Origin: an uncultured Gemmatimonadaceae bacterium
Lineage (GTDB): Bacteria; Gemmatimonadota; Gemmatimonadetes; Gemmatimonadales; Gemmatimonadaceae
Direction of reading: 5' to 3'
DNA length: 64,000 bases
Assembly: GCA_963829055.1 (NCBI GenBank)
Contig: CAWHHI010000011.1
Location: forward strand, 64,001 to 128,000
Shown here: positions 1 through 10,782 of the stretch, one piece after another
Layout: each line of letters begins with the position of its first letter
How positions within the stretch are numbered: the first letter of the stretch is position 1
Translations under genes and position numbers: made by a program
Notes under the pieces: model-generated
Told to the model about the DNA's origin: nothing
Database searches by the model: none
The model's input: the letters and a program-made list of their open reading frames with translations, nothing else

Positions 1-520
1 GTGCAGGGCATTCGCTACGACGACATCCGCGCGGGGCTGCTCTCGTTCTTCCCCTCCCCGGCGTTGACGCCCGGCCGGCTCAACCTCATGCGCGTCGGGC
101 GCGGGCGTCTGCTCGTGGACTACGCGCATAACGCGGCGGCGGTGGGCGGCCTCATGGAGCTCGTCGCATCGCTCGATGCCAGTCGCCGCTTCGGTGTGAT
201 CACCGCGCCCGGCGATCGGCGCGACGAGGACATCCGCGAGCTCGGCCGGCTGGCCGCGGGGCTCGATCGCGTCATCGTGAAGGAAGACAACGACCGGCGA
301 GGTCGTGAGCCTGGCGAGATCGCGCGGCTGGTGCGCGACGGGCTCACGGCCGGCGGCATGTCGCCGGATGCGATCGAAGTCGTCGCCGACGAGATGGCCG
401 CAGTCGATCGCCTGGTAGCGAATGCTCGAGGACCACGACATCGGGGTCGTGCTCGCCGACGATGTGCCGGGTGTGCTCGACCATCTGCAGAGACGCGCGC
501 AGCCCGCGGCGGTGCCATGA
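1..520 (+). CDS. cphA: Cyanophycin synthetase, C-terminal Mur-ligase-like part (5' end outside window; +1 frameshift near 421)
   Basis: PGRLN, LVDYAHNAAA, PGDRRDEDI and KEDNDRRGREPGE motifs are typical of the CphA C-terminus. Removing one base at about 421 gives MLEDHDIGVVLADDVPGVLDHL... ending at TGA 518-520. Upstream of a cyanophycinase. Confidence 0.85.
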
Positions 521-1651
521 CCGTGAGCGACGCCGGCAAGCCCGGTGCGCTTCCGGATCCCGCGACGGAGATCCGGATGACGACGCTGCACGCGACGCGT
601 GGCGCGAACTACTGGTCGCGTCGGCCGGTGACGCGCGTGGACGTGATCGTCGGCGCGTACGACGACATCTCGTCGGCGCACGTACCCGGGGTGACGGCGG
701 CGCTCGTGGGAGCGATGCCCAGCCTCATCGAGCATCGCTGCAGCATCGGAGAGCGTGGCGGGTTCATCATCCGCCTTCGTCGCGGGACGTACATCCCGCA
801 CATCGTCGAGCACGTCGCGCTCGAGCTGCAGACGCCTCATCGGTCATGACGTTGGCTACGGCCGCACGCGCGGTGGCGACGTTCCGGGCGAGTACACGAT
901 CGTGTTCGAGCACATGCACGAAGAAGTCGGGATTCGCGCGGCGGCGCTGGCGCTCGACGTCGTTCAGCGCGCGTTCGCTGGAACGCTCGACTCGGTGGAG
1001 CCCGCGCTGGCCGAGCTGCGCGCGCTCGCCGCTCATCCGCAAGCGGCGCCGCTCAAGGCGCACGTCCTGTGCGGCATCACCGGCGGAGCATGGCGTGCCG
1101 AGACGAGGACGGAGCTTGCGAGCCGAGGCTTCGGCGTCGATGATGATCTGGTGGTGGATGTCGCGCCGGGATACATCCTCCAGGCAGGACTACCCTACTC
1201 TCGATCCGACGCCGCTATCGTGCTCGACGATCAACCGACCGACGTGCCCGAACGGTACCGTGACCCCGAGCGCGCATCGCGCCTCGTGTCTGTCGTGGCG
1301 GACGGCGTGCGCGCTGGCGGCTTGCTCGTCGCGCCGGCGAAATCGTGGGACGTGCAGGATCGCGCCCGCGATGCGGGTTGCCGAGTCGCGGTGTTCGCGA
1401 CGGATGCGAACATCACCGCGCGTGACAAGAAGGTCGCCGGCGCGGCGGCGTGGGTCGAGGATGGTCGCATCGTGTTGGAGCACGTCGATGGCGTCGTCGA
1501 TGGTGGCGCGGTTCGGGACGACGTCGCTCCGACCGTCCAGGTGGCCGCCGCGTTATGCGTCTTCGGCGTCGAGGCCCTGCGGCCCGACCAGCATCCCGGA
1601 CGGGGATCCGCGCGCGCCCTCGAGCACGTGAGCACGCATGGCGTCGGGTAG
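517..1651 (+). CDS. CphA-derived protein: CphA N domain fused to a degenerate Mur-ligase core, no ATP-grasp domain (about 377 aa after correcting a +1 frameshift near 835)
   Basis: ATG 517 overlaps the cphA stop (ATGA). RGANYWS, HRCSIGERGGFIIRLRRGTYIPHIVEHVALELQ and GYGRTR match the CphA N domain. GITGGAWRAET and DVAPGYILQAGLPYSRSDAAIV resemble a decayed M domain. Confidence 0.8.
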
Positions 1652-2594
1652 CGACGGCGCCCGCCGTCCTGCCCAGCGCTCCTCCACGTCCGCCGCGCGA
1701 CGTACTCCGGTCGATACGGCACGTGGCGCGCTCGTCCTCATCGGCGGCGCCTGCAGCCCCGACGGCGACGCGTTAGGTACGTTCATCCGTCTCGCCGGAG
1801 CCGATCGCGGTGCCGGGATCATGGGCTTCACCACGGCGTCGAGCAATCCTGTGCGCGCCGCGGCCGCCTGGCGGAAGGACTTCGCTGCGGCGGGTGTCGA
1901 GAACGTCGAGTTCCCGCTCGTGCAGAACCGCGACGCCGCGAACGACGCTGCGCTAGCCGATCGCGTGCGAGAATCGCCCGGCCTCTTCCTCGGCGGTGGT
2001 GATCAGGTGCACCTCATCGCGACGCTGAGCGGTACGCTGCTGGGCGCCGCGATCCGCGAGGCGTTCGTGCGCGGCGCGGTCGTCTGCGGCACGAGCGCGG
2101 GCGCGGCGGCGCTCACCGAGACGACGATGGCGGGCGGTGAGGTCGACGAGGATGGAAAGGAGGTCGAGATGTACATCGGCCCGGGACTCGGCCTGCTCTG
2201 CTTCGGAACGCTCATCGATACACACTTCGCGCAGCGCCGGCGACTGCATCGTCTCTTCGTGGCGATCGCCGGCTACCCGCAGCTCATGGGCCTCGGTATC
2301 GACGAGGACACGGGCCTGGTGGTGCGCGGCTCGATCGGCGAGGTGGTCGGCAAGGGTGGCGTCACGTTCGTGGACGGTCGCGACACGGTGCGCTTCGACA
2401 ACGCGAGCCAGGTGAAGAAGGGTGGCGAGCTGACGCTGAGTCATCTCCGCGTCGGGCTGGTCGGGACGGGACAGCTGTTCGATCTGGAGGCGAGAGAGCT
2501 CGTTAGGCTCGTTGCGTCGGAGGCCGTCGTCCGGGCCGGCAATGGTGAGGTGGGAACGAGGAACCGGGAACGGGGGACTGGAGCCGCTCGCTGA
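1638..2594 (+). CDS. cphB: Cyanophycinase (peptidase S51)
   Basis: LVLIGG, GGGDQ, GTSAGA nucleophile motif, DTHFAQRRRLHRL and GIDEDT; overlaps the preceding gene by 14 nt. Confidence 0.92.
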   Translation: MASGSDGARRPAQRSSTSAARRTPVDTARGALVLIGGACSPDGDALGTFIRLAGADRGAGIMGFTTASSNPVRAAAAWRKDFAAAGVENVEFPLVQNRDAANDAALADRVRESPGLFLGGGDQVHLIATLSGTLLGAAIREAFVRGAVVCGTSAGAAALTETTMAGGEVDEDGKEVEMYIGPGLGLLCFGTLIDTHFAQRRRLHRLFVAIAGYPQLMGLGIDEDTGLVVRGSIGEVVGKGGVTFVDGRDTVRFDNASQVKKGGELTLSHLRVGLVGTGQLFDLEARELVRLVASEAVVRAGNGEVGTRNRERGTGAAR

Positions 2595-2845: not shown

Positions 2846-4312
2846 TTATCGCACGAAAACCCGGTACCCATTTGCCGGAATCTCGATCTTCCCGTCCGTC
2901 GCGAGCGACGCCGACGCCTTCGTGAACCACTCCGTGTACCCGCCCGGACGCGTTAGGCCGCGGTACGACACCGACGCCGGCTTGTCGGCGAAGTTGAGCG
3001 CCACCAGCACCGTGTTGTCATCCCGCGACCGTGTGAATGCGTACACACGGTCACCGCCATCGGTCGCCAGCTTCACCTGCGGGCCGCCCCACGGGCCGTT
3101 CGCGAGCGCCGCCTGCGTGTGCTTGAGGTCGAACACCGAACTATAGAAGTCCGCGAGCGACGGACCCGTCCAGTCCACCGTGTCCTTCTCGAAGAAGCGC
3201 AGACGCTTCTTCATGCTCACCTCCTGCCCCGTGTACAGGAGCGGCATCGACCGCTGCGCCGTCGCGCTCAGCACGAACGCCGGCTTGTGGTTCGCGCCCA
3301 TGCGCTCGAACTCCGAACCGTTCCAGCTGTTCTCGTCGTGATTGCTCGTGAAGTACATGCGATACGCGCCCGGGCCGTACACGCTATCGTCCTTGGCGAA
3401 GTACGCGTCGAGCGCCGGCGTACCCTGCTTCCCCTGCGCGATGGCGTTCATCAGGTGGTGCAGGTCCCAGCCGTACGTCATGTCGAACGCCGCATGCATG
3501 CGCGGGTCCTCGGCCTCGGCCAACAGGAACAGGGCCGGAGCGCGCACCTTGAGCGCGGTGCGTGCCTCTACCCAGAAGTCGACCGGGACGCCGCCGGCCA
3601 CATCGCACCGGAAGCCGTCGATGCCCGTACTATCGATCCACCACTTCATCTCGGCGATCATGGCCTGACGCAGCGCGGGATTGCGAAAGTCCAATTCGGC
3701 GACGTCCGTCCAGTCGGTCTCCTTCCCCTCGTTGTCACGCGCGTTCATGAGCGAGCCATCGGCGCGCCGCTCGTAGTAGTCGGGATGCGCTGTGACCCAC
3801 TCGTGATCGTACGCGGTGTGATTCGCGACCCAGTCGAGAATGACTCTCATCCCCCGCTGATGCGCGCCGGCCACGAACGCGCGGAAGTCCTCGATCTTGC
3901 CGAACTCGGGATTCACTGCCGTGTAGTCGCTGATGGCGTAGTAGCTCCCGAGCTTGCCCTTCCGGTTCTTGACGCCAATTGGCTGCACCGGCATCAGCCA
4001 CAGGATGTCGACGCCTAGCTTCTCCAATCGCGGCAGGTGCGTCTGCAACGCGGCGAGCGTGCCCTCGGGCGTGTACTGCCTGACGTTCACCTCGTAAATC
4101 ACCGACTTGCGCGACCACGACGGATGGAAATCCGGATCCGCGCTCGGCCGTGAAGCAGCGACGGGATCGTTAGGTCTCGCCGCGCTGCCCGGTGTCGCCG
4201 CCGCGCTCGATGCAGTCGCAGCCGCCGCGGAATCGCCACTCGCTGCCTTGGAAGAGGGCGAACACGCCAGCAGCGCGATCGCGGCGGTCACAGGGGGAAG
4301 AGCGGTGCGCAT
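2846..4312 (-). CDS. GH13 alpha-amylase family lipoprotein
   Basis: GGAG before ATG 4312; lipobox-like ALLAC; IYEVNVRQ, LDWVANHT, DGFRCDVA, LAEAE and NHDE conserved regions. Confidence 0.9.
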   Translation of the reverse strand: MRTALPPVTAAIALLACSPSSKAASGDSAAAATASSAAATPGSAARPNDPVAASRPSADPDFHPSWSRKSVIYEVNVRQYTPEGTLAALQTHLPRLEKLGVDILWLMPVQPIGVKNRKGKLGSYYAISDYTAVNPEFGKIEDFRAFVAGAHQRGMRVILDWVANHTAYDHEWVTAHPDYYERRADGSLMNARDNEGKETDWTDVAELDFRNPALRQAMIAEMKWWIDSTGIDGFRCDVAGGVPVDFWVEARTALKVRAPALFLLAEAEDPRMHAAFDMTYGWDLHHLMNAIAQGKQGTPALDAYFAKDDSVYGPGAYRMYFTSNHDENSWNGSEFERMGANHKPAFVLSATAQRSMPLLYTGQEVSMKKRLRFFEKDTVDWTGPSLADFYSSVFDLKHTQAALANGPWGGPQVKLATDGGDRVYAFTRSRDDNTVLVALNFADKPASVSYRGLTRPGGYTEWFTKASASLATDGKIEIPANGYRVFVR

Positions 4313-4362
4313 ATGAATCTCCGGCTGTGAGTCGTTCGGCCGACCCATCTGGCGATCGAAAA

Positions 4363-6018
4363 TCACGGTGAAGGCGAGAGCTGCACGACGTGCGCCTTCA
4401 TGGGCGCAAGCGTGACCGACGGCACGTAGCCTCGCACGCTTCCATCCGCAGCGACGGAAATTGGAGCGACATTCGCCCCGACCAGGCTCCGCGCCGAGTA
4501 CTGTCCCGCGGGCAACGCACCGCTCGGAAACGTGAGCGTCACGTTCGAGAGCGCCGCCTGCCCTACGTTCGCGACGACGAGCACCACGGTCGTGCCATCC
4601 CGGCGAAGATACGCGGCGACGGCGTCGCTCGACGCAACGAGTGGCAGGAAATCACCGCGGCCGAGCGCAGTGTTGCCTGCCCTGAGGTGAATGAGCGTGC
4701 GGTACGCCGCGAGCAGCGAGGTCGTGTCGGTCTCCTGCGCCGCGACGTTCGTCGTTGGCCAATTCGCGTTGAGCGGCTCCCACGGCGTGCCGCTCGTGAA
4801 CCCCGCCCCGGCCGACGCCGTCCACTGCATTGGCGTTCGCAGTTGCTCGTCCGGCTTATCGCCGGTCATCCCGATCTCCTCGCCGTAGTAGACGAACGGC
4901 GTGCCTGGGAGCGTGAGCAGGAGCGTCGCCGCGACCTTCACGCGCTGGGTGTCGCCGCCCAGGGCGGTCAGCGTGCGCGTCTGGTCGTGATTGCGCAGGA
5001 ACGTCGACCAGCGGGCGTTAGGCACCTCCTGCTGGAAGCGCTGGAAGCGTCGCATCAACGCCGACGCCGATCCCGTCCGCACGGCGGCGAGCAGATCGTC
5101 CGACAGATCGAACGCGAAGTACGACTCGAGCTGATCAGGATAGTAGGGTAGCATCTTGTCGATGCCGTCCCATACCTCACCGACCGTGAACGCCGTCGGC
5201 GCGACGGCCCGAACGTGAGCCGCGTACTCGCGCAGGAATGCGTGCGTCCCCGCCGTGCCGATTTGCTTCGCGCCCTCCTCCACCAGATACGGCACCGCGT
5301 CGAGCCGGAAGCCGTCGACGCCCATCTGCGTGAGCCAGAACGTGGCGATCCGCTTCGCCTCGTCCCGAACGGCCGGCGTATCGTAGTTCAGATCCGGCAT
5401 GCCCTGCCAGAAAACTCCATAGTAGTACTCGATCGCGCAGTGGCGAGCGGTGCCACACTTCCTGCCCCCACGGCCCGAGCTCCGCCGGCTTCGTCGCGGA
5501 CCATCGGAACCAGGCTCGGTGTGGCGCCGTCGGCCCACCTAACGCGTCACGAAAGTATGGATGCTCGCTCGACAGGTGATTCAGCACCATGTCGACGACG
5601 ACGGCGATCCCCCGCCGGTGCGCCTCGACCACGAGTCGCGTGAAATCCGCGTTCGTGCCGTAGTCCGGCTCGATGCGGTAGTAGTTCGTGGCGTCGTACC
5701 CGTGATAGCGTCGGCGACTCGGCCACCGGCATGAGCCACATGCACTGGGCGCCGAGATCCCGGCTCGTGGCGGGATTGCCGTCGTTGATGTAGTCGAGCT
5801 TCTCGGTGAGCCCGCGGAGATCGCCGATGCCGTCGCCGTTGCTGTCGTAGAACGACCGGACGAACACTTCGTAGCACGTAGCGCCGCGTCGCCAGTCAGG
5901 CACGGCGCTCGTCACCGGCGTGGAGGGCAGCAACGTGGTGTCGCGCTGCCGCGTGTTGGTCGGCGCGCCACACCCTACAGCCCGCGGAGAACGCGGCGAC
6001 GCGAGCGGGCGTTGTCAT
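4363..6018 (-). CDS. GH13 alpha-amylase family protein, probably a lipoprotein; split by apparent +1 frameshifts (about 5980, 5710, 5430); start uncertain
   Basis: [56 protein letters not shown] and YYGEEIG are spread over three ORF fragments; AVGC near the N-terminus. Confidence 0.82.
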
Positions 6019-6153
6019 TCCGAGCGCGTCGTCATTCCGAGCGGAGCGCCGAAGGCGCGCGCAGTCGAGGAATGCTCGGTCTTCCGGGTAGCAGGAGCCC
6101 TCTACCGCGGACCGTCACGATTCCTCGACTCGCTGTCGCTCGCTCGGAATGAC
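6013..6153. repeat. REP-like palindromic element, family 2
   Basis: TGTCATTCCGAGCG...GTCGAGGAAT...ATTCCTCGACT...CGCTCGGAATGAC inverted arms; related copies at 62834, 14521 and 53421. Confidence 0.8.
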
Positions 6154-6159
6154 CAACAA

Positions 6160-7734
6160 TCAATAGCCCGTGTTCTGCTTGAGGTTCGGGTTGGCGCTGA
6201 GCTCCGTCACCGGCAGCGGATACAGATTGCGGAATGCCTCCGTGGTCTTCCCCGCGGCCACGTTGCCCTTCCAGGCCCAGATGCCCGCCGTCGTGAAACG
6301 ATCGAAGCGAATCAGGTCCGTGCGCCGATGCCCTTCCCAGAACAGCTCACGCGCCCGCTCGTCGCGGAGGAAGTCGAGCGTCAGCTGTGCATCGGTGATG
6401 TTGCCGGTCGCGTTGCCGTAGGCCCGCGCGCGGAGCGCGTTTACGTAGGTCAGCGCCTGCGCGCGCGATCCACCGCCACCTCTCACGACGGCCTCGGCGT
6501 ACATGAGGTACGCGTCGCCGAGCCGGAACATCGGGAAATCGATGTCGGAGAAGCCCGTGCTCGATCCCGGCGCGCCCGTGGACGTGACGTTGCGATACTT
6601 CGGCGCACCGAGACCGGTGTTGAAGTCGGTGAGGTTCGTCATCGCGAGCGACTGGCCATCCGTGTAGAAGATCCCCGACCGCCGATCACCCGCACCCGTC
6701 GCGTTGGGGAATAGCGCCACGAACTCCGGTCGCGCGCGCAGTCCGTACCAGCCGCCATCGAGGCCGAACGCCGTCGCGTTCATGGTGCCACCGACTGCGG
6801 CATGCGTCAGGAACGTCGTTCCACCGAAGGATTGCGTCTTGGTCCCGTCGAACGGAACCGCGAAGATCAGCTCAGCAGACTTGTTGTTGTCGGCGAGGAA
6901 CAGCCGCTGATAGATCGGTTCGAGCTGGTACGAACCAGCGATCACTTTTTCGAGCTCCGTTCTAGCCTCGGTGGCGCGCTCGGTGCCGGTGTACACCTTT
7001 GCGTTCAGGTACACCTTTGCGAGCAGCATCGCCACGGCACCCTGGTCCGCACGCCCATAGGAAGCGCGCGGCGCCGGCAGCTCGGTCCGGATCGCCGTCA
7101 GCTCGGAGACGATGTAGTTGTACACTTCGGCGCGCGTACTCTGCTTCGGTGGCGTCCTGCCTAACGCGAACTCCTCGGTGACGAGCGGGATGTCGCCGAA
7201 GAGATCAATGCCGTGCCAGTAGCTGAGCGCGCGGAGGAAGCGTGCTTCGGCACGGTACTGCTTCACCTGCGCGAGCAGGTTACCAGTCACGTTGCGCGAG
7301 GCGAGCTTCTCATCGGTCGTTTCGCGGAGGAACTCGTTCACGAGCCCCACCTGGAAAAAAACGCGGCCGTACATCGCCTGCAGGAACTGGTTCGACGACG
7401 ACCACAGCTGCGTGTTGAGCTCCTGCACGCCGGCGTCGTTCCACGCGATCGCCGTTTCATCCGTCGGCAGCTCCTGCATCTGCCAGATCAGGCGGATGTA
7501 GCCACCGAACCCCTCGTCGATACCCTGGATGTCCGGGCGTCCTGCCGGGCCTTCCTGCCCGGACACCTGCAGGCCGCCATAGATCTTGGCGATGAATGCC
7601 TTGTACGAGCTCGGCTCGTTGAACGCGTTCACGTTCGTGAGCGAGCTCTTTGGCGGTGACGTCAGGTCCGTACACGCCGCGACCGTGACGAGTGTCAGTG
7701 CCGCAAAGAGCGTCGTCCGTGCCGTCGTCTTCAT
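6160..7734 (-). CDS. susD: RagB/SusD family nutrient-binding outer-membrane lipoprotein
   Basis: GGAG plus ATG 7734; lipobox VAAC; AEARFLRAL, FRLGDAYLMYAEA, ERARELFWEGHRRTDLIRF and terminal NPNLKQNTGY; downstream of susC. Confidence 0.92.
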   Translation of the reverse strand: MKTTARTTLFAALTLVTVAACTDLTSPPKSSLTNVNAFNEPSSYKAFIAKIYGGLQVSGQEGPAGRPDIQGIDEGFGGYIRLIWQMQELPTDETAIAWNDAGVQELNTQLWSSSNQFLQAMYGRVFFQVGLVNEFLRETTDEKLASRNVTGNLLAQVKQYRAEARFLRALSYWHGIDLFGDIPLVTEEFALGRTPPKQSTRAEVYNYIVSELTAIRTELPAPRASYGRADQGAVAMLLAKVYLNAKVYTGTERATEARTELEKVIAGSYQLEPIYQRLFLADNNKSAELIFAVPFDGTKTQSFGGTTFLTHAAVGGTMNATAFGLDGGWYGLRARPEFVALFPNATGAGDRRSGIFYTDGQSLAMTNLTDFNTGLGAPKYRNVTSTGAPGSSTGFSDIDFPMFRLGDAYLMYAEAVVRGGGGSRAQALTYVNALRARAYGNATGNITDAQLTLDFLRDERARELFWEGHRRTDLIRFDRFTTAGIWAWKGNVAAGKTTEAFRNLYPLPVTELSANPNLKQNTGY

Positions 7735-7793
7735 GACTCCCTCGAGCGCTGTAGTGATCCGCGTGGTCCGCGCGATCCGTGTGGTCGTAGTCA

Positions 7794-10782
7794 TCAGAAC
7801 CCCACCGTGAAGCCGGTCATGAACGTGCGCGACTGCGGGTAGATGTTCCTGTCGATCCCGGTGACGCCGGCCGTCGGATCGATGCCGGAATAATCGGTGA
7901 GCGTGAACACGTTCTGGATCGTGCCGAAGACGCGCAGCTGCTTCAACGATCCGAATTTCGGCAGCCGATATCCGATGGTGACGTTGTCCAGGCGCACGAA
8001 CGACGCGTCCTCGACGTACACGTCGGAGAAGTACTGCGGATTCACGAACCCGGTGTTGAGCACCGAGGCATCGAGGTTGCCCGGGGCGGCGCCTTTGACG
8101 GCGCTGTAGTGTCCGAGGTTCGAGGCAATGTTGTTGTACACGTAGTTGCCGAGATACGCGCGAAGCGTGAAGCTCCCGTCGAAGTTCTTGAAGTTCATCT
8201 GCGACGACGCGCCGAGGATCCACTTCGGTGCCGGACTCTTGTACGGACGGAGATCGTCCTGGTTCACGTTGCCGTCGCCATTGAGATCGACGTACAGGTC
8301 CTTGTCGTCGATGTTCTTGTCGCCGTTCGTGTCGGCGTACACCGGCTTGCCGTTCGCGTCGCGCTTGTGCTGGTACACGAAGAACGAGTTCACGGGGTAG
8401 CCTGGCTTCAGCACTTCGACGTTGCTGCCGACGCCGCCGTCAATGGGGCCGACGAGAATCTGGTTGCCGCCCGTCCCGCCGGCGTTGATCCCCAGCAGCT
8501 TGTTGTCGTTCTTTGCCGCGTTGAGCGACGCGTCCCAGCTGAACGCGCCGTTCGTCCCTTCGAACACGCGGTAGTTCAGTCCGAGCTCGATGCCGCGGTT
8601 TTCCATGCTGCCGATGTTCGTGGTGACGAAGTTCGACAGGTTCGTCCCCGCGGCCACCGGGACGTTGAAGATGAGATCCTCGGTTTTCTTGTAGTAGTAG
8701 TCGATCGTTCCCGTTAGGCGGCTCGACAGGAGTCCGAAGTCGAGGCCGACGTTCGTGGATGTCGTCTCCTCCCACTTGATGTCCGGATCGACCGCGCTCG
8801 GCCGGATGGTCGTCACGAACTCATCGCCGAACTGCACCTGCGCGAGGTTCGTACCGACCGTGTACGTCGAATACGCCAGATAGTTGTTGAACGCCTGGTT
8901 GCCGTTCACGCCCCATGAGAGGCGCAGCTTGAGGTCGCTCAGCCAGCCGACGTTCTTCATGAACGATTCATCGATCACGCGCCATGCGAACGCGGCGGAC
9001 GGGAAGATGCCCCACTGGTTGTCGGGGCCGAATTTCGATGAGCCATCACGCCGCACGCTGCCCGTGAGCAGGTACTTGTCCTTGAACGAGAGATTCGCGC
9101 GGCCGAAGAACGACACGAGCCGGCTCTCCTGCGTATCGAGGAATGTCTGCTGCGTCTTCGACCCCGGAATGCCGTTAGGCCCGAGGAGATCGGTGCTCAG
9201 ACCGACCGCGAGCGCGCGCGTCGAATCGTACTGGAAGTTCTCGTACGTGTAGCCGCCGGTGACGTCGAGATTGCTGCTGTATTTCGTGAACTGGTGGTTG
9301 TAGTTACCGAACAGTTCCAGCAGCGTGTTCAATTGACCCGGCGTGTTCTCGCTGAACGTGCCGCCGGTGCTGTTCTCGAGTTGCCCCTGGGCGGTACTGG
9401 GCGAGAAGCTCGTCCGCTGGGCCGTCGCATAGTCGTACCCGCCGCGAGCCGTGGCTGAGAGGCCGGTGACCCACGGCAGCTGATACTTGGTCTCGAGGTT
9501 GCCCACGCTGCGGTACTCCGTGCCTTCGTCCGTCAGCAGCTCGAGGTCCGACAGCGGGTTATTGGCGCCTAACGGGTCCGCCCACTGGAAGTACGACCCC
9601 GACGCGTTGCGGATCGGCTGCGTCGGCGCGAATGATGTCGCGGCGCCGAGGACGCCGTTTGGCGTGAAACGATCGTCGGTGCGGCTGCCCTTGATGTTCG
9701 CCCGCACGTCCAGCGCGTGGTTGAGCACCAGGTCGCCATACGAGAGGGCAAGGGATGTCCGTTGCGCGGTGCTGCCTTCGAGCACGCCGTCCTGGTTCAG
9801 GTAGCCTAACGATGCGCGGTAATGCAGGTCATCGCGGCCGCCGGCCAGTGCCACCAGGTGATCCTGCCCGAACCCCGAGCGCTGGATCGCGCCGCGCCAG
9901 TCGGTGCTGGCCGTGCCGAGCTTGCTCGTATTCTCCGGGGCATACTGCGTGACCGCCGAACGGAACTGCGTCGCGTCCAGCAGATCCGCCTCACGCGCCA
10001 CCGTCGAAGTGGAGACGGACCCCGAGTACGACAGCTGCATGCCCTGCGCACCCGACTTGGTCGTGATCAGGACGACGCCGTTCGCGCCGCGCGATCCGTA
10101 GATCGCCGTCGCCGACGCATCCTTCAGCACCGTCATGTTCTCGATGTCGGACGGGTTCAGGAAGTTGAGCGGGTTACGGCCCGCGTTCACGCCACCGCCG
10201 ACAGGCAGCGGCACGCCATCGAGCACGAACAACGGCTCGTTGCTGCTCGTGACGGACGTCCCTCCGCGGATACGGATGTTGACGGTCCCACCCGGCTCGT
10301 TGCTCCCAATCACCTGCACGCCCGGGACTTTCGCCTGAATGAGTTGCTCCGGACTGACGACGCGCCCGGTGTTGAACTGCGTCGAGTCGACCGACGCCAC
10401 TGCCCCCGTGCTATTGCGCGCCTCCTGCGTTCCGTACCCGACGACCACGATGTTGCTGAGCGTAGCCGCGGACGTCGCGAGTGAGAAGTCGGCAGTGGTC
10501 TCCCCGTTGGCCGTGACGGTGAGTCCGGTGACGGAATCGGGCGCGAAGCCGAGCCGGAGTCGCGCGCACGGTGTATCTGCCCGGCTGAACGGTGATGGTG
10601 TAGCGCCCGTCGTCACGAGTCACCGCGCCAGTCGTGGTTCCCGCCACGACCACCTGCGCGCCAGGGATGGGCCGGGCTCCTTCAGCGGAGGTGACTTTGC
10701 CGGTGATCCTTCCTGTTTGTGCGAGGACAGGCGCGCCTACGACGACCGTTGCTGCGAGAACGACAAACGCTGTTCGCCACAT
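7794..10782 (-). CDS. susC: SusC/RagA family TonB-dependent transporter (+1 frameshift near 10560)
   Basis: Signal peptide MWRTAFVVLAATVVVGAPVLAQ; carboxypeptidase-regulatory-like N domain; VVVGYG, PLFVLDG, LKDASATAIYGSRGANGVVLITTK and KWEET motifs; terminal F. Confidence 0.92.

Follow-up and report, generated by a model that had tools for sequence, protein, structure and literature searches.

The best-described relative of the gene considered here is the cyanophycin synthetase CphA1, represented by SuCphA1 (PDB 7LG5, 7TXV; TIGR02068; PF18921; PMC9262961), whose N-domain site cuts long chains of the nitrogen-storage polymer cyanophycin internally; cutting into primers has so far been known only within the full CphA enzyme. 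According to the portions of PMC9262961 available to us, the polymer is held in this site by the side chains of S60, R70, E90 and Y110, and in the complex of the E82Q variant it is also contacted by S603 and E607 of the M domain. The R100A mutant described there had no effect, and those portions of the text and supplements report no mutants of Y110 or E607. The same account states that the excised N domain was insoluble until the hydrophobic loop that packs against the M domain had been mutated, and that the solubilised, isolated domain primed a primer-dependent CphA1 in trans. It also reports that a shortage of primers held back the yield of cyanophycin in E. coli about two-fold, and it argues that, since hydrolysis and synthesis are housed in one protein, expression cannot set the balance between them.

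Within the window, the whole 64,000-nucleotide stretch of DNA from a soil bacterium of the Gemmatimonadaceae analysed here, a gene that we call X lies between cphA and cphB. X is a real, conserved and so far undescribed CphA derivative; it is no CphA1, CphA2 or Mur ligase. A search of the open literature, with subscription papers such as the 2021 CphA1 structure paper outside its scope, found no description of it. X is unmentioned in the accessible parts of PMC10206079, PMC10687191, PMC10273328 and PMC12661447, and the string "Gemmatimonad" does not occur in those of PMC10206079 or PMC10687191. The features of the locus are as follows.

1..520, + strand: 3' end of cphA (CphA1, M lid); gene start ~2.15 kb before the window
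517..1651, + strand: gene X, a CphA N domain plus an M core predicted to be catalytically dead; 377 aa in the intact allele P0002
571..1033, + strand: N domain of X, residues ~19-172 (PF18921)
739..813, + strand: Cx19HxxEH metal site of X; C75, H95, E98 and H99 correspond to SuCphA1 C59, H79, E82 and H83
739..813 (same entry), + strand: X residues H73, S76, F83, R86 and E103, at the positions of SuCphA1 H57, S60, F67, R70 and E87
834..834, + strand: extra base causing an apparent frameshift in X; missing from independent contigs
893..895, + strand: Y126 of X, equivalent to SuCphA1 Y110, a substrate contact that X retains and the adjacent CphA has lost
1064..1576, + strand: pseudo-M core of X, residues ~183-353; Mur-ligase central fold, DH pair lost
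1070-1105, + strand: decayed P-loop of X, inside the pseudo-M core
1289..1303, + strand: S258 and D262 of X, equivalent to SuCphA1 S603 and E607, the M-domain contacts to N-site cyanophycin
1638..2594, + strand: cphB cyanophycinase; TIGR02069 above cut-off, 177.5 vs 126.6

Architecture of gene X

X overlaps both of its neighbours: its start codon (ATG, 517-519) runs into the stop codon of cphA (TGA, 518-520) as ATGA, and its own stop (1649-1651) closes a 14-nt overlap with cphB, which begins with the ATG at 1638. These overlaps had been part of the original prediction and are confirmed, as are the motifs that it had listed, namely Cx19HxxEH followed directly by GYGRTR and, at the later P-loop position, GITGGAWRAET. 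In the assembly, the gene is interrupted by the extra base at 834. The first frame holds the N domain as far as HIVEHVALELQT and the second resumes at GHDVGYGRTRGG before continuing into the M-like half; the PF18921 match is broken at this point into model positions 2-67 and 70-112, with scores above cut-off in both halves. Base 834 is missing from contigs of two of the four DNA runs and one of the four RNA-library runs, the remaining runs having no long contig that spans the site. The intact allele P0002 encodes 377 aa without interruption, at 99% identity over the second half of X, and among the 15 listed members of its 90% cluster 13 have 377 aa, one 374 aa and one 245 aa. The frameshift is an assembly error: the break that had been placed at about 835 exists in the assembly, but the contigs and cluster members without it show that the gene itself is not broken. 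The cphA gene likewise carries an extra base, at 420, that is missing in three of four runs and is again an error of assembly, and another frameshift upstream of the window, read from the assembly sequence alone. In the four RNA libraries, short contigs match portions of X with 97-99.6% identity, for which DNA carry-over is a possible source. An apparent fusion of X to cphA or cphB in two other genomes (G011, G015) was rejected: the long frames there come from GC-rich DNA that stays open on the upstream side, and cphA and cphB occupy frames of their own.

Alignment of X to CphA1 leaps from residue 171 to about 555, with no match to the G domain, and the structural match ends at about residue 709; the M lid of CphA1 begins at residue 724 in the available text of PMC9427784, and X has none. 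The absence of both an ATP-grasp domain and a lid, as originally predicted, is therefore upheld by the alignment and the structural match, which skip both. Against solved structures, X matched SuCphA1 residues 8-171 strongly and 555-663 weakly. The AlphaFold2 weights that we used are older than the CphA1 structures, which were released in 2021-2022. The resulting model of X, built from 98 sequences and no templates, has a mean pLDDT of 89.1 and a pTM of 0.73. Its best structural match is 7TXV, the SuCphA1 E82Q complex with cyanophycin bound in the N-domain site (Z 27.7 over 325 residues), and this match covers CphA1 1-709, both domains, in one superposition. The model thus suggests that the N domain and M core of X pack roughly as in CphA1, at an rmsd of 4.5 Å.

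Taken by itself, the pseudo-M core superimposes on MurC/D/E/F with Z scores of 13-15.5 over ~155-165 residues, and X has no match to the Mur Pfam families. The GxxGKT/S P-loop and the C-terminal lid of the Mur ligases are lost; Arg replaces the P-loop Lys in 98 of 98 X sequences, Pro stands at the R561 position and Asp at the E558 position, and neither DH[LIM]G nor E[TV]ARG occurs in any of 121 X sequences. The core is about 40 residues shorter than the CphA1 M core, and the two halves of X score 93 and 48 bits with TIGR02068 against a cut-off of 850. Inspection of the fold and of the P-loop Lys-to-Arg replacement bears out the earlier description of a Mur-ligase-like core with a decayed P-loop. 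Judged by its residues, the M core is catalytically dead as a ligase, and both building sites of CphA are lost.

Compared with CphA1, X retains the N fold, Cx19HxxEH, the H57/S60/F67/R70/E87/Y110 set and the hydrophobic N loop, together with an M core in roughly the same position that bears the S603/E607 equivalents, but it lacks the G domain, lid, P-loop and DH pair, and it is a separate gene beside a complete cphA rather than a synthetase domain. CphA2 (PDB 7TA5, 8FXH), as presented in the accessible part of PMC10273328, is also a CphA1 derivative with a truncated, inactive M domain, yet it is a mirror image of X: its G domain is active and its N domain motif-less and non-catalytic, whereas X has kept the N site and deleted G. 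The engineered SuCphA1 N domain (Y14S I17T), free-standing and able to prime in trans in the available account of PMC9262961, plays the role that we propose for X; it is artificial and needed solubilising changes, whereas X keeps the aromatic-Trp loop and an M core. The paired CphA proteins of Oxalobacteraceae resemble X as a second CphA-derived gene beside cphA, but they keep their G domains. A further comparison is offered by G-less N'+M ligase-like paralogues, again second CphA-derived genes beside cphA and the opposite of X in that P-loop, ETARGG, DH and lid are kept and the N-like part is motif-less. CphB and CphE (peptidase S51), by contrast, hydrolyse the cyanophycin backbone as serine exo-enzymes of unrelated fold; X, which they adjoin, would be a metal-dependent endo-enzyme.

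Copies of the G-less paralogue were seen beside cphA genes at L125:9064-10764, L126:10058-13099 (-), L127:5958-7757 (-), L128:11436-13199 and L129:3-1331 (-). These proteins combine the motif-less N-like part with an apparently active M domain, P-loop and ETARG being present in 5 of 5 and DH and lid in the 4 complete copies.

The predicted cleavage groove in X and in the adjacent CphA

Positions of X were mapped onto SuCphA1 by sequence alignment. All 52 distinct N-sites of X carry the equivalents of H57, C59, S60, F67, R70, H79, E82, H83, E87, R102 and Y110, and all 52 keep the aromatic-Trp loop, that is, the hydrophobic N loop. E90 is kept in none of the 52, and in only 4 of 57 other CphAs; in 8 of these 57, which have Cx20H spacing, the H57/C59/F67 columns of the residue table are off by one. 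In the M-like half, the E607 position is Asp in 120 of 120 listed homologues and acidic in 47 of 49 parsed locus rows (one His, one mis-parsed; 8 further rows unparsed), and an S603 equivalent is present in 77 of 98 X sequences. The pseudo-M core may have been retained because it buries the hydrophobic N loop, as the CphA1 M domain does, and because S258 and D262 complete the N-domain cleavage groove. With the N loop, S60/R70/Y110 and S258/D262 all kept, X would be near the smallest unit that holds the whole groove. With both the motif and the second shell around it intact, X is best read as an endo-cyanophycinase.

The CphA encoded next to X presents a reciprocal picture. Whether this upstream protein keeps its own Cx19HxxEH had been raised with the original prediction, and the answer is divided: the motif stands in 33 of 34 sequences, one having an E-to-Q change, and H57, F67 and E87 are found in 27 of 27, but the surroundings have changed. 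None of 27 sequences has Y110 (24 have Trp instead), all 27 carry Val at both T101 and R102, and none of 50 has an acidic residue at E607. Other CphA-like proteins have Y110 in 52 of 57 and an acidic E607 in 45 of 57. The synthetic motifs R309, R323, N394/S396, R458, K499/T500, E558/R561 and D585/H586 occur in 34 of 34 X-adjacent CphAs, the E215 pattern in 29 and the H267 pattern in 30 of 34. The partner cleavage site, with W for Y110 and A for E607, may be weakened or retuned, which would mean that chain cutting has moved at least partly to a separate gene. Because the changed residues are themselves conserved, the site may have been retuned rather than weakened, and because the isolated N domain works without an M domain, loss of E607 need not inactivate the partner. 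The natural E-to-Q change in HxxEH (L077:3299-5986) is the one used to inactivate SuCphA1; the X of that locus keeps the Glu.

Among 401 genomes drawn from the phylum Gemmatimonadota, the W-type CphA occurs in 19, X in 16 and both in 15; in the sixteenth X genome, the locus ends inside a W-type cphA. Four W-type CphAs without X each adjoin a second CphA that keeps Y110 and E607, and both X and the W-type protein are lacking from the remaining 93 genomes that gave a CphA N-domain match. The W-type profile was built partly from these same genomes, which are related, so the co-occurrence is a consistent pattern and not a statistical test; it probably reflects a single event in related genomes.

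The genome containing the window has a single cphA. Four genomes (L125-L128) have two full cphA genes per cluster, one W-type and one canonical, with cphB and the G-less ligase. Eight loci (L012, L013, L036, L037, L039, L040, L042 and L044) contain another Gemmatimonadota CphA clade, with Cx20HxxEH and a different N-terminal loop.

Distribution, selection and origin of the X family

With the second half of X as query, 1373 proteins were matched among 8000 candidates; the 120 matches listed have a median length of 365 aa, and 116 of these contain Cx19HxxEH, the four others being either N-terminally cut (3) or internally deleted (1). The gene is present in 10 of 41 near genomes. A GTDB scan yielded at least 37 X-type loci among the 80 loci kept, 36 of them with Gemmatimonadota titles (to Gemmatimonadaceae, to Longimicrobiaceae or only to phylum) and one of unidentified source; ordinary CphAs from other phyla make up the remaining 43. 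No X outside Gemmatimonadota was found among these 80 loci and the 120 listed of 1373 homologues; one match labelled Geminicoccaceae falls in the same 90% cluster as a Gemmatimonadaceae protein. A divergent pseudo-M core, used as a query, matched only itself. Among the annotated phages searched, there was no match to X, and the plasmids searched gave CphA N-domain matches only. In the Atlas, X forms three clusters of 66-121 members, auto-named after cyanophycin synthetase. Databases often mislabel members of the family as 'cyanophycin synthetase', an error that would make cphA counts too high.

The order of the genes is conserved. A cphA of the same type lies upstream of X in all 36 loci with upstream sequence, directly adjoining it in 30 and separated by insertions in 6 Longimicrobium loci, and a cphB of the same type follows directly in 29 of 30 loci with downstream sequence; in one genome (G294), X has no cphA within 7 kb upstream. 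Ten pairs from five same-genus genomes gave dN/dS values of 0.05-0.17 for the N half of X and 0.07-0.22 for the pseudo-M half, beside 0.06-0.17 for the cphA M domain and 0.08-0.22 for cphB. The X family is under purifying selection. The N plus pseudo-M architecture recurs together with the cphA-X-cphB order, and the proposal of a third, conserved and selected component of the cyanophycin locus is supported by homologues, gene order and dN/dS; absent or randomly degraded homologues, which would have spoken for a cphA remnant, are at odds with the 120 listed proteins of median length 365 aa and with the low dN/dS. In two of the Longimicrobium loci (L070:4929-5909, L073:3587-4588), a two-repeat, probably secreted protein is encoded between cphA and X.

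X and the W-type CphA were grouped at an SH-aLRT of 88 in a quick tree of 146 N domains, but a careful tree of 54 of those domains gave the grouping no more than 74/25, and the alternative, X with the other Gemmatimonadota CphA clade, was not rejected (p-AU 0.26). The stem of X is too long for a tree of the M core (56 of 131 rows) to place it. Given this weak sister relation, an origin of X by tandem duplication of the adjacent cphA is a guess.

A possible primer generator and its alternatives

Whatever its physiological direction, X is probably a stand-alone zinc endo-cyanophycinase: C75, H95 and H99 would bind the metal, E98 would serve as the general base, and X would cut long cyanophycin internally, as the SuCphA1 N site does. 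The reading that we prefer, to which we give a chance a little below even, is that X serves mainly to prime the neighbouring CphA, the resulting short pieces acting in trans as primers for the adjacent synthetase. The dead M core would cover the hydrophobic N loop and supply S258 and D262 to the groove, while the partner site would be weakened or retuned. Priming is favoured as the main use because the partner has, reciprocally, lost Y110 and E607. Against it stand the Cx19HxxEH (33 of 34) and the H57, F67 and E87 (27 of 27) that the partner retains, the activity of an isolated N domain with no M domain, the overlap of X with cphB as well as with cphA, and the missing E90, though this residue is rare in other CphAs also.

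The same endo-cyanophycinase might instead work mainly in breakdown, nicking chains or granules to make ends or oligomers for the exo-enzyme CphB, a role that we regard as unlikely, though it is the main rival to priming. It would account for X staying with its own type of CphB in 29 of 30 loci with downstream flank and for X-cphB being kept where cphA is displaced (the 6 Longimicrobium loci and G294), and it would suit a partner CphA that retains its own metal motif. The co-encoded CphB has diverged, too: the acidic GGAEDK-type loop, present in 35 of 39 other CphB-like proteins, is missing in 49 of 49 X-type CphBs, all 49 of which have DTHF. A role in breakdown would nevertheless leave the reciprocal Y110/E607 loss unexplained, and CphB is fast on granule strands unaided in the available text of PMC9262961. 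Rather improbable, in our judgement, is a non-catalytic or weakly catalytic subunit or regulator that uses its M core to dock onto G cores of CphA, onto CphB or onto granules, while its metal site holds polymer uncut. The CphA1 M core does touch three G cores in the tetramer (PMC9427784, as far as accessible), and the pseudo-M core has invariant residues of its own (R193, D237, V243-P244, Y247, Q280, R284 and D303), among them the Arg for the P-loop Lys and the Asp for E558. As these follow a stem branch of great length, they hint at a new binding surface. But the general-base Glu and all second-shell residues of X are invariant in 52 of 52, the N domain of CphA2, which is non-catalytic, has no motif (in the accessible parts of PMC9262961 and PMC10273328), and charged residues are fewer in the tethering helices of X (means of 7.0 acidic and 2.9 basic) than in their CphA counterparts (~10 and 5).

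We consider it improbable that the whole operon now makes a variant polymer or a short product of defined length, with X acting as a metallopeptidase for that or another isopeptide-linked substrate. The CphA N-site (RVVxSGD..VWW), X and CphB do all differ conservedly from the studied cutting sites, and the N domain is also found beyond cyanophycin loci, in stand-alone genes of phage contigs. The synthetic motifs of the partner CphA are, however, largely intact, most in 34 of 34, and since they and the arginine cluster of the X-locus CphB are kept, ordinary cyanophycin is the likely product. A functionless X, whether a cphA duplicate in decay or an artefact of assembly, is barely credible. The copy in the window does contain a frameshift, and of the three domains two are lost or dead, but the frameshift is missing from independent contigs and cluster members, the 120 listed homologues keep a median of 365 aa with dN/dS at or below 0.22 in both halves, and X forms one clade (support 99-100) across two families. 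A pseudogene or genuine frameshift is ruled out by the intact relatives, the dN/dS and the contigs without base 834.

If X does prime the neighbouring CphA in trans, a separate gene product would govern priming and chain length. We tentatively propose, with more doubt than confidence, that Gemmatimonadota have split CphA1, a duplicated cphA having been cut down to an N plus M-core cleavage module, a natural endo-cyanophycinase dedicated to that task, and the synthetase having surrendered part of its cleavage groove. Besides CphA1 and CphA2, X would make a third kind of CphA derivative, and it seems a natural exception to the argument, as available to us in PMC9262961, for hydrolysis and synthesis in one protein. 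The pair formed by X and its partner makes testable which residues (Y110, E607) set cutting rate and product size, and X makes testable in vivo whether endo-cutting serves priming or mobilisation. As primer supply limits yield, a natural free-standing and probably soluble primer generator would be of practical use.

Stand-alone CphA N domains with an intact Cx19HxxEH and GFGRTR were also seen in ten viral loci of IMG/VR (L139-L148; for example L140:2956-3504, L142:2950-3495 and L145:2941-3486). They are ~181 aa long in nine, the remaining one lying at a contig start, and the contigs, up to 436 kb, have tail-tube, SSB and SbcD-like neighbours. They had no match in PHROG, and the literature searched gave no account of them. 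Their NYW loop has become NKW, a change from aromatic to Lys in keeping with the view that N domains either retain an M core or alter the loop; they are possibly phage cyanophycin-cutting enzymes. Together with X, if the split that we propose is real, they would make the Cx19HxxEH domain a mobile peptidase family of its own.

Further observations concern the surroundings of X. The cphB of the window has intact GTSAG/DxHF/GIDE motifs, a replaced GGAEDK loop and DTHF for DQHF; the same genome has two more S51-family genes (C20:794781-795563 and C11:574773-575306), the former with the canonical cyanophycinase motifs GGHEDK and DQHF. Upstream of the window (L001:8749-11581), pruA-like and PhzF-like genes precede cphA, the former presumably a glutamate semialdehyde dehydrogenase; relatives of the two occur in 13 and 7 X loci, respectively, this one included, and a link of X loci to arginine catabolism is possible. 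After cphB, a short repeat at 2610-2665 reaches a summed contig depth of hundreds to thousands and resembles REP-type elements. On the opposite strand, 2846-10616 (-) holds a starch-utilisation-like cluster with SusC/SusD-like and alpha-amylase-like ORFs, judging by their translations, and more apparent frameshifts lie at ~5540-5640 within it.
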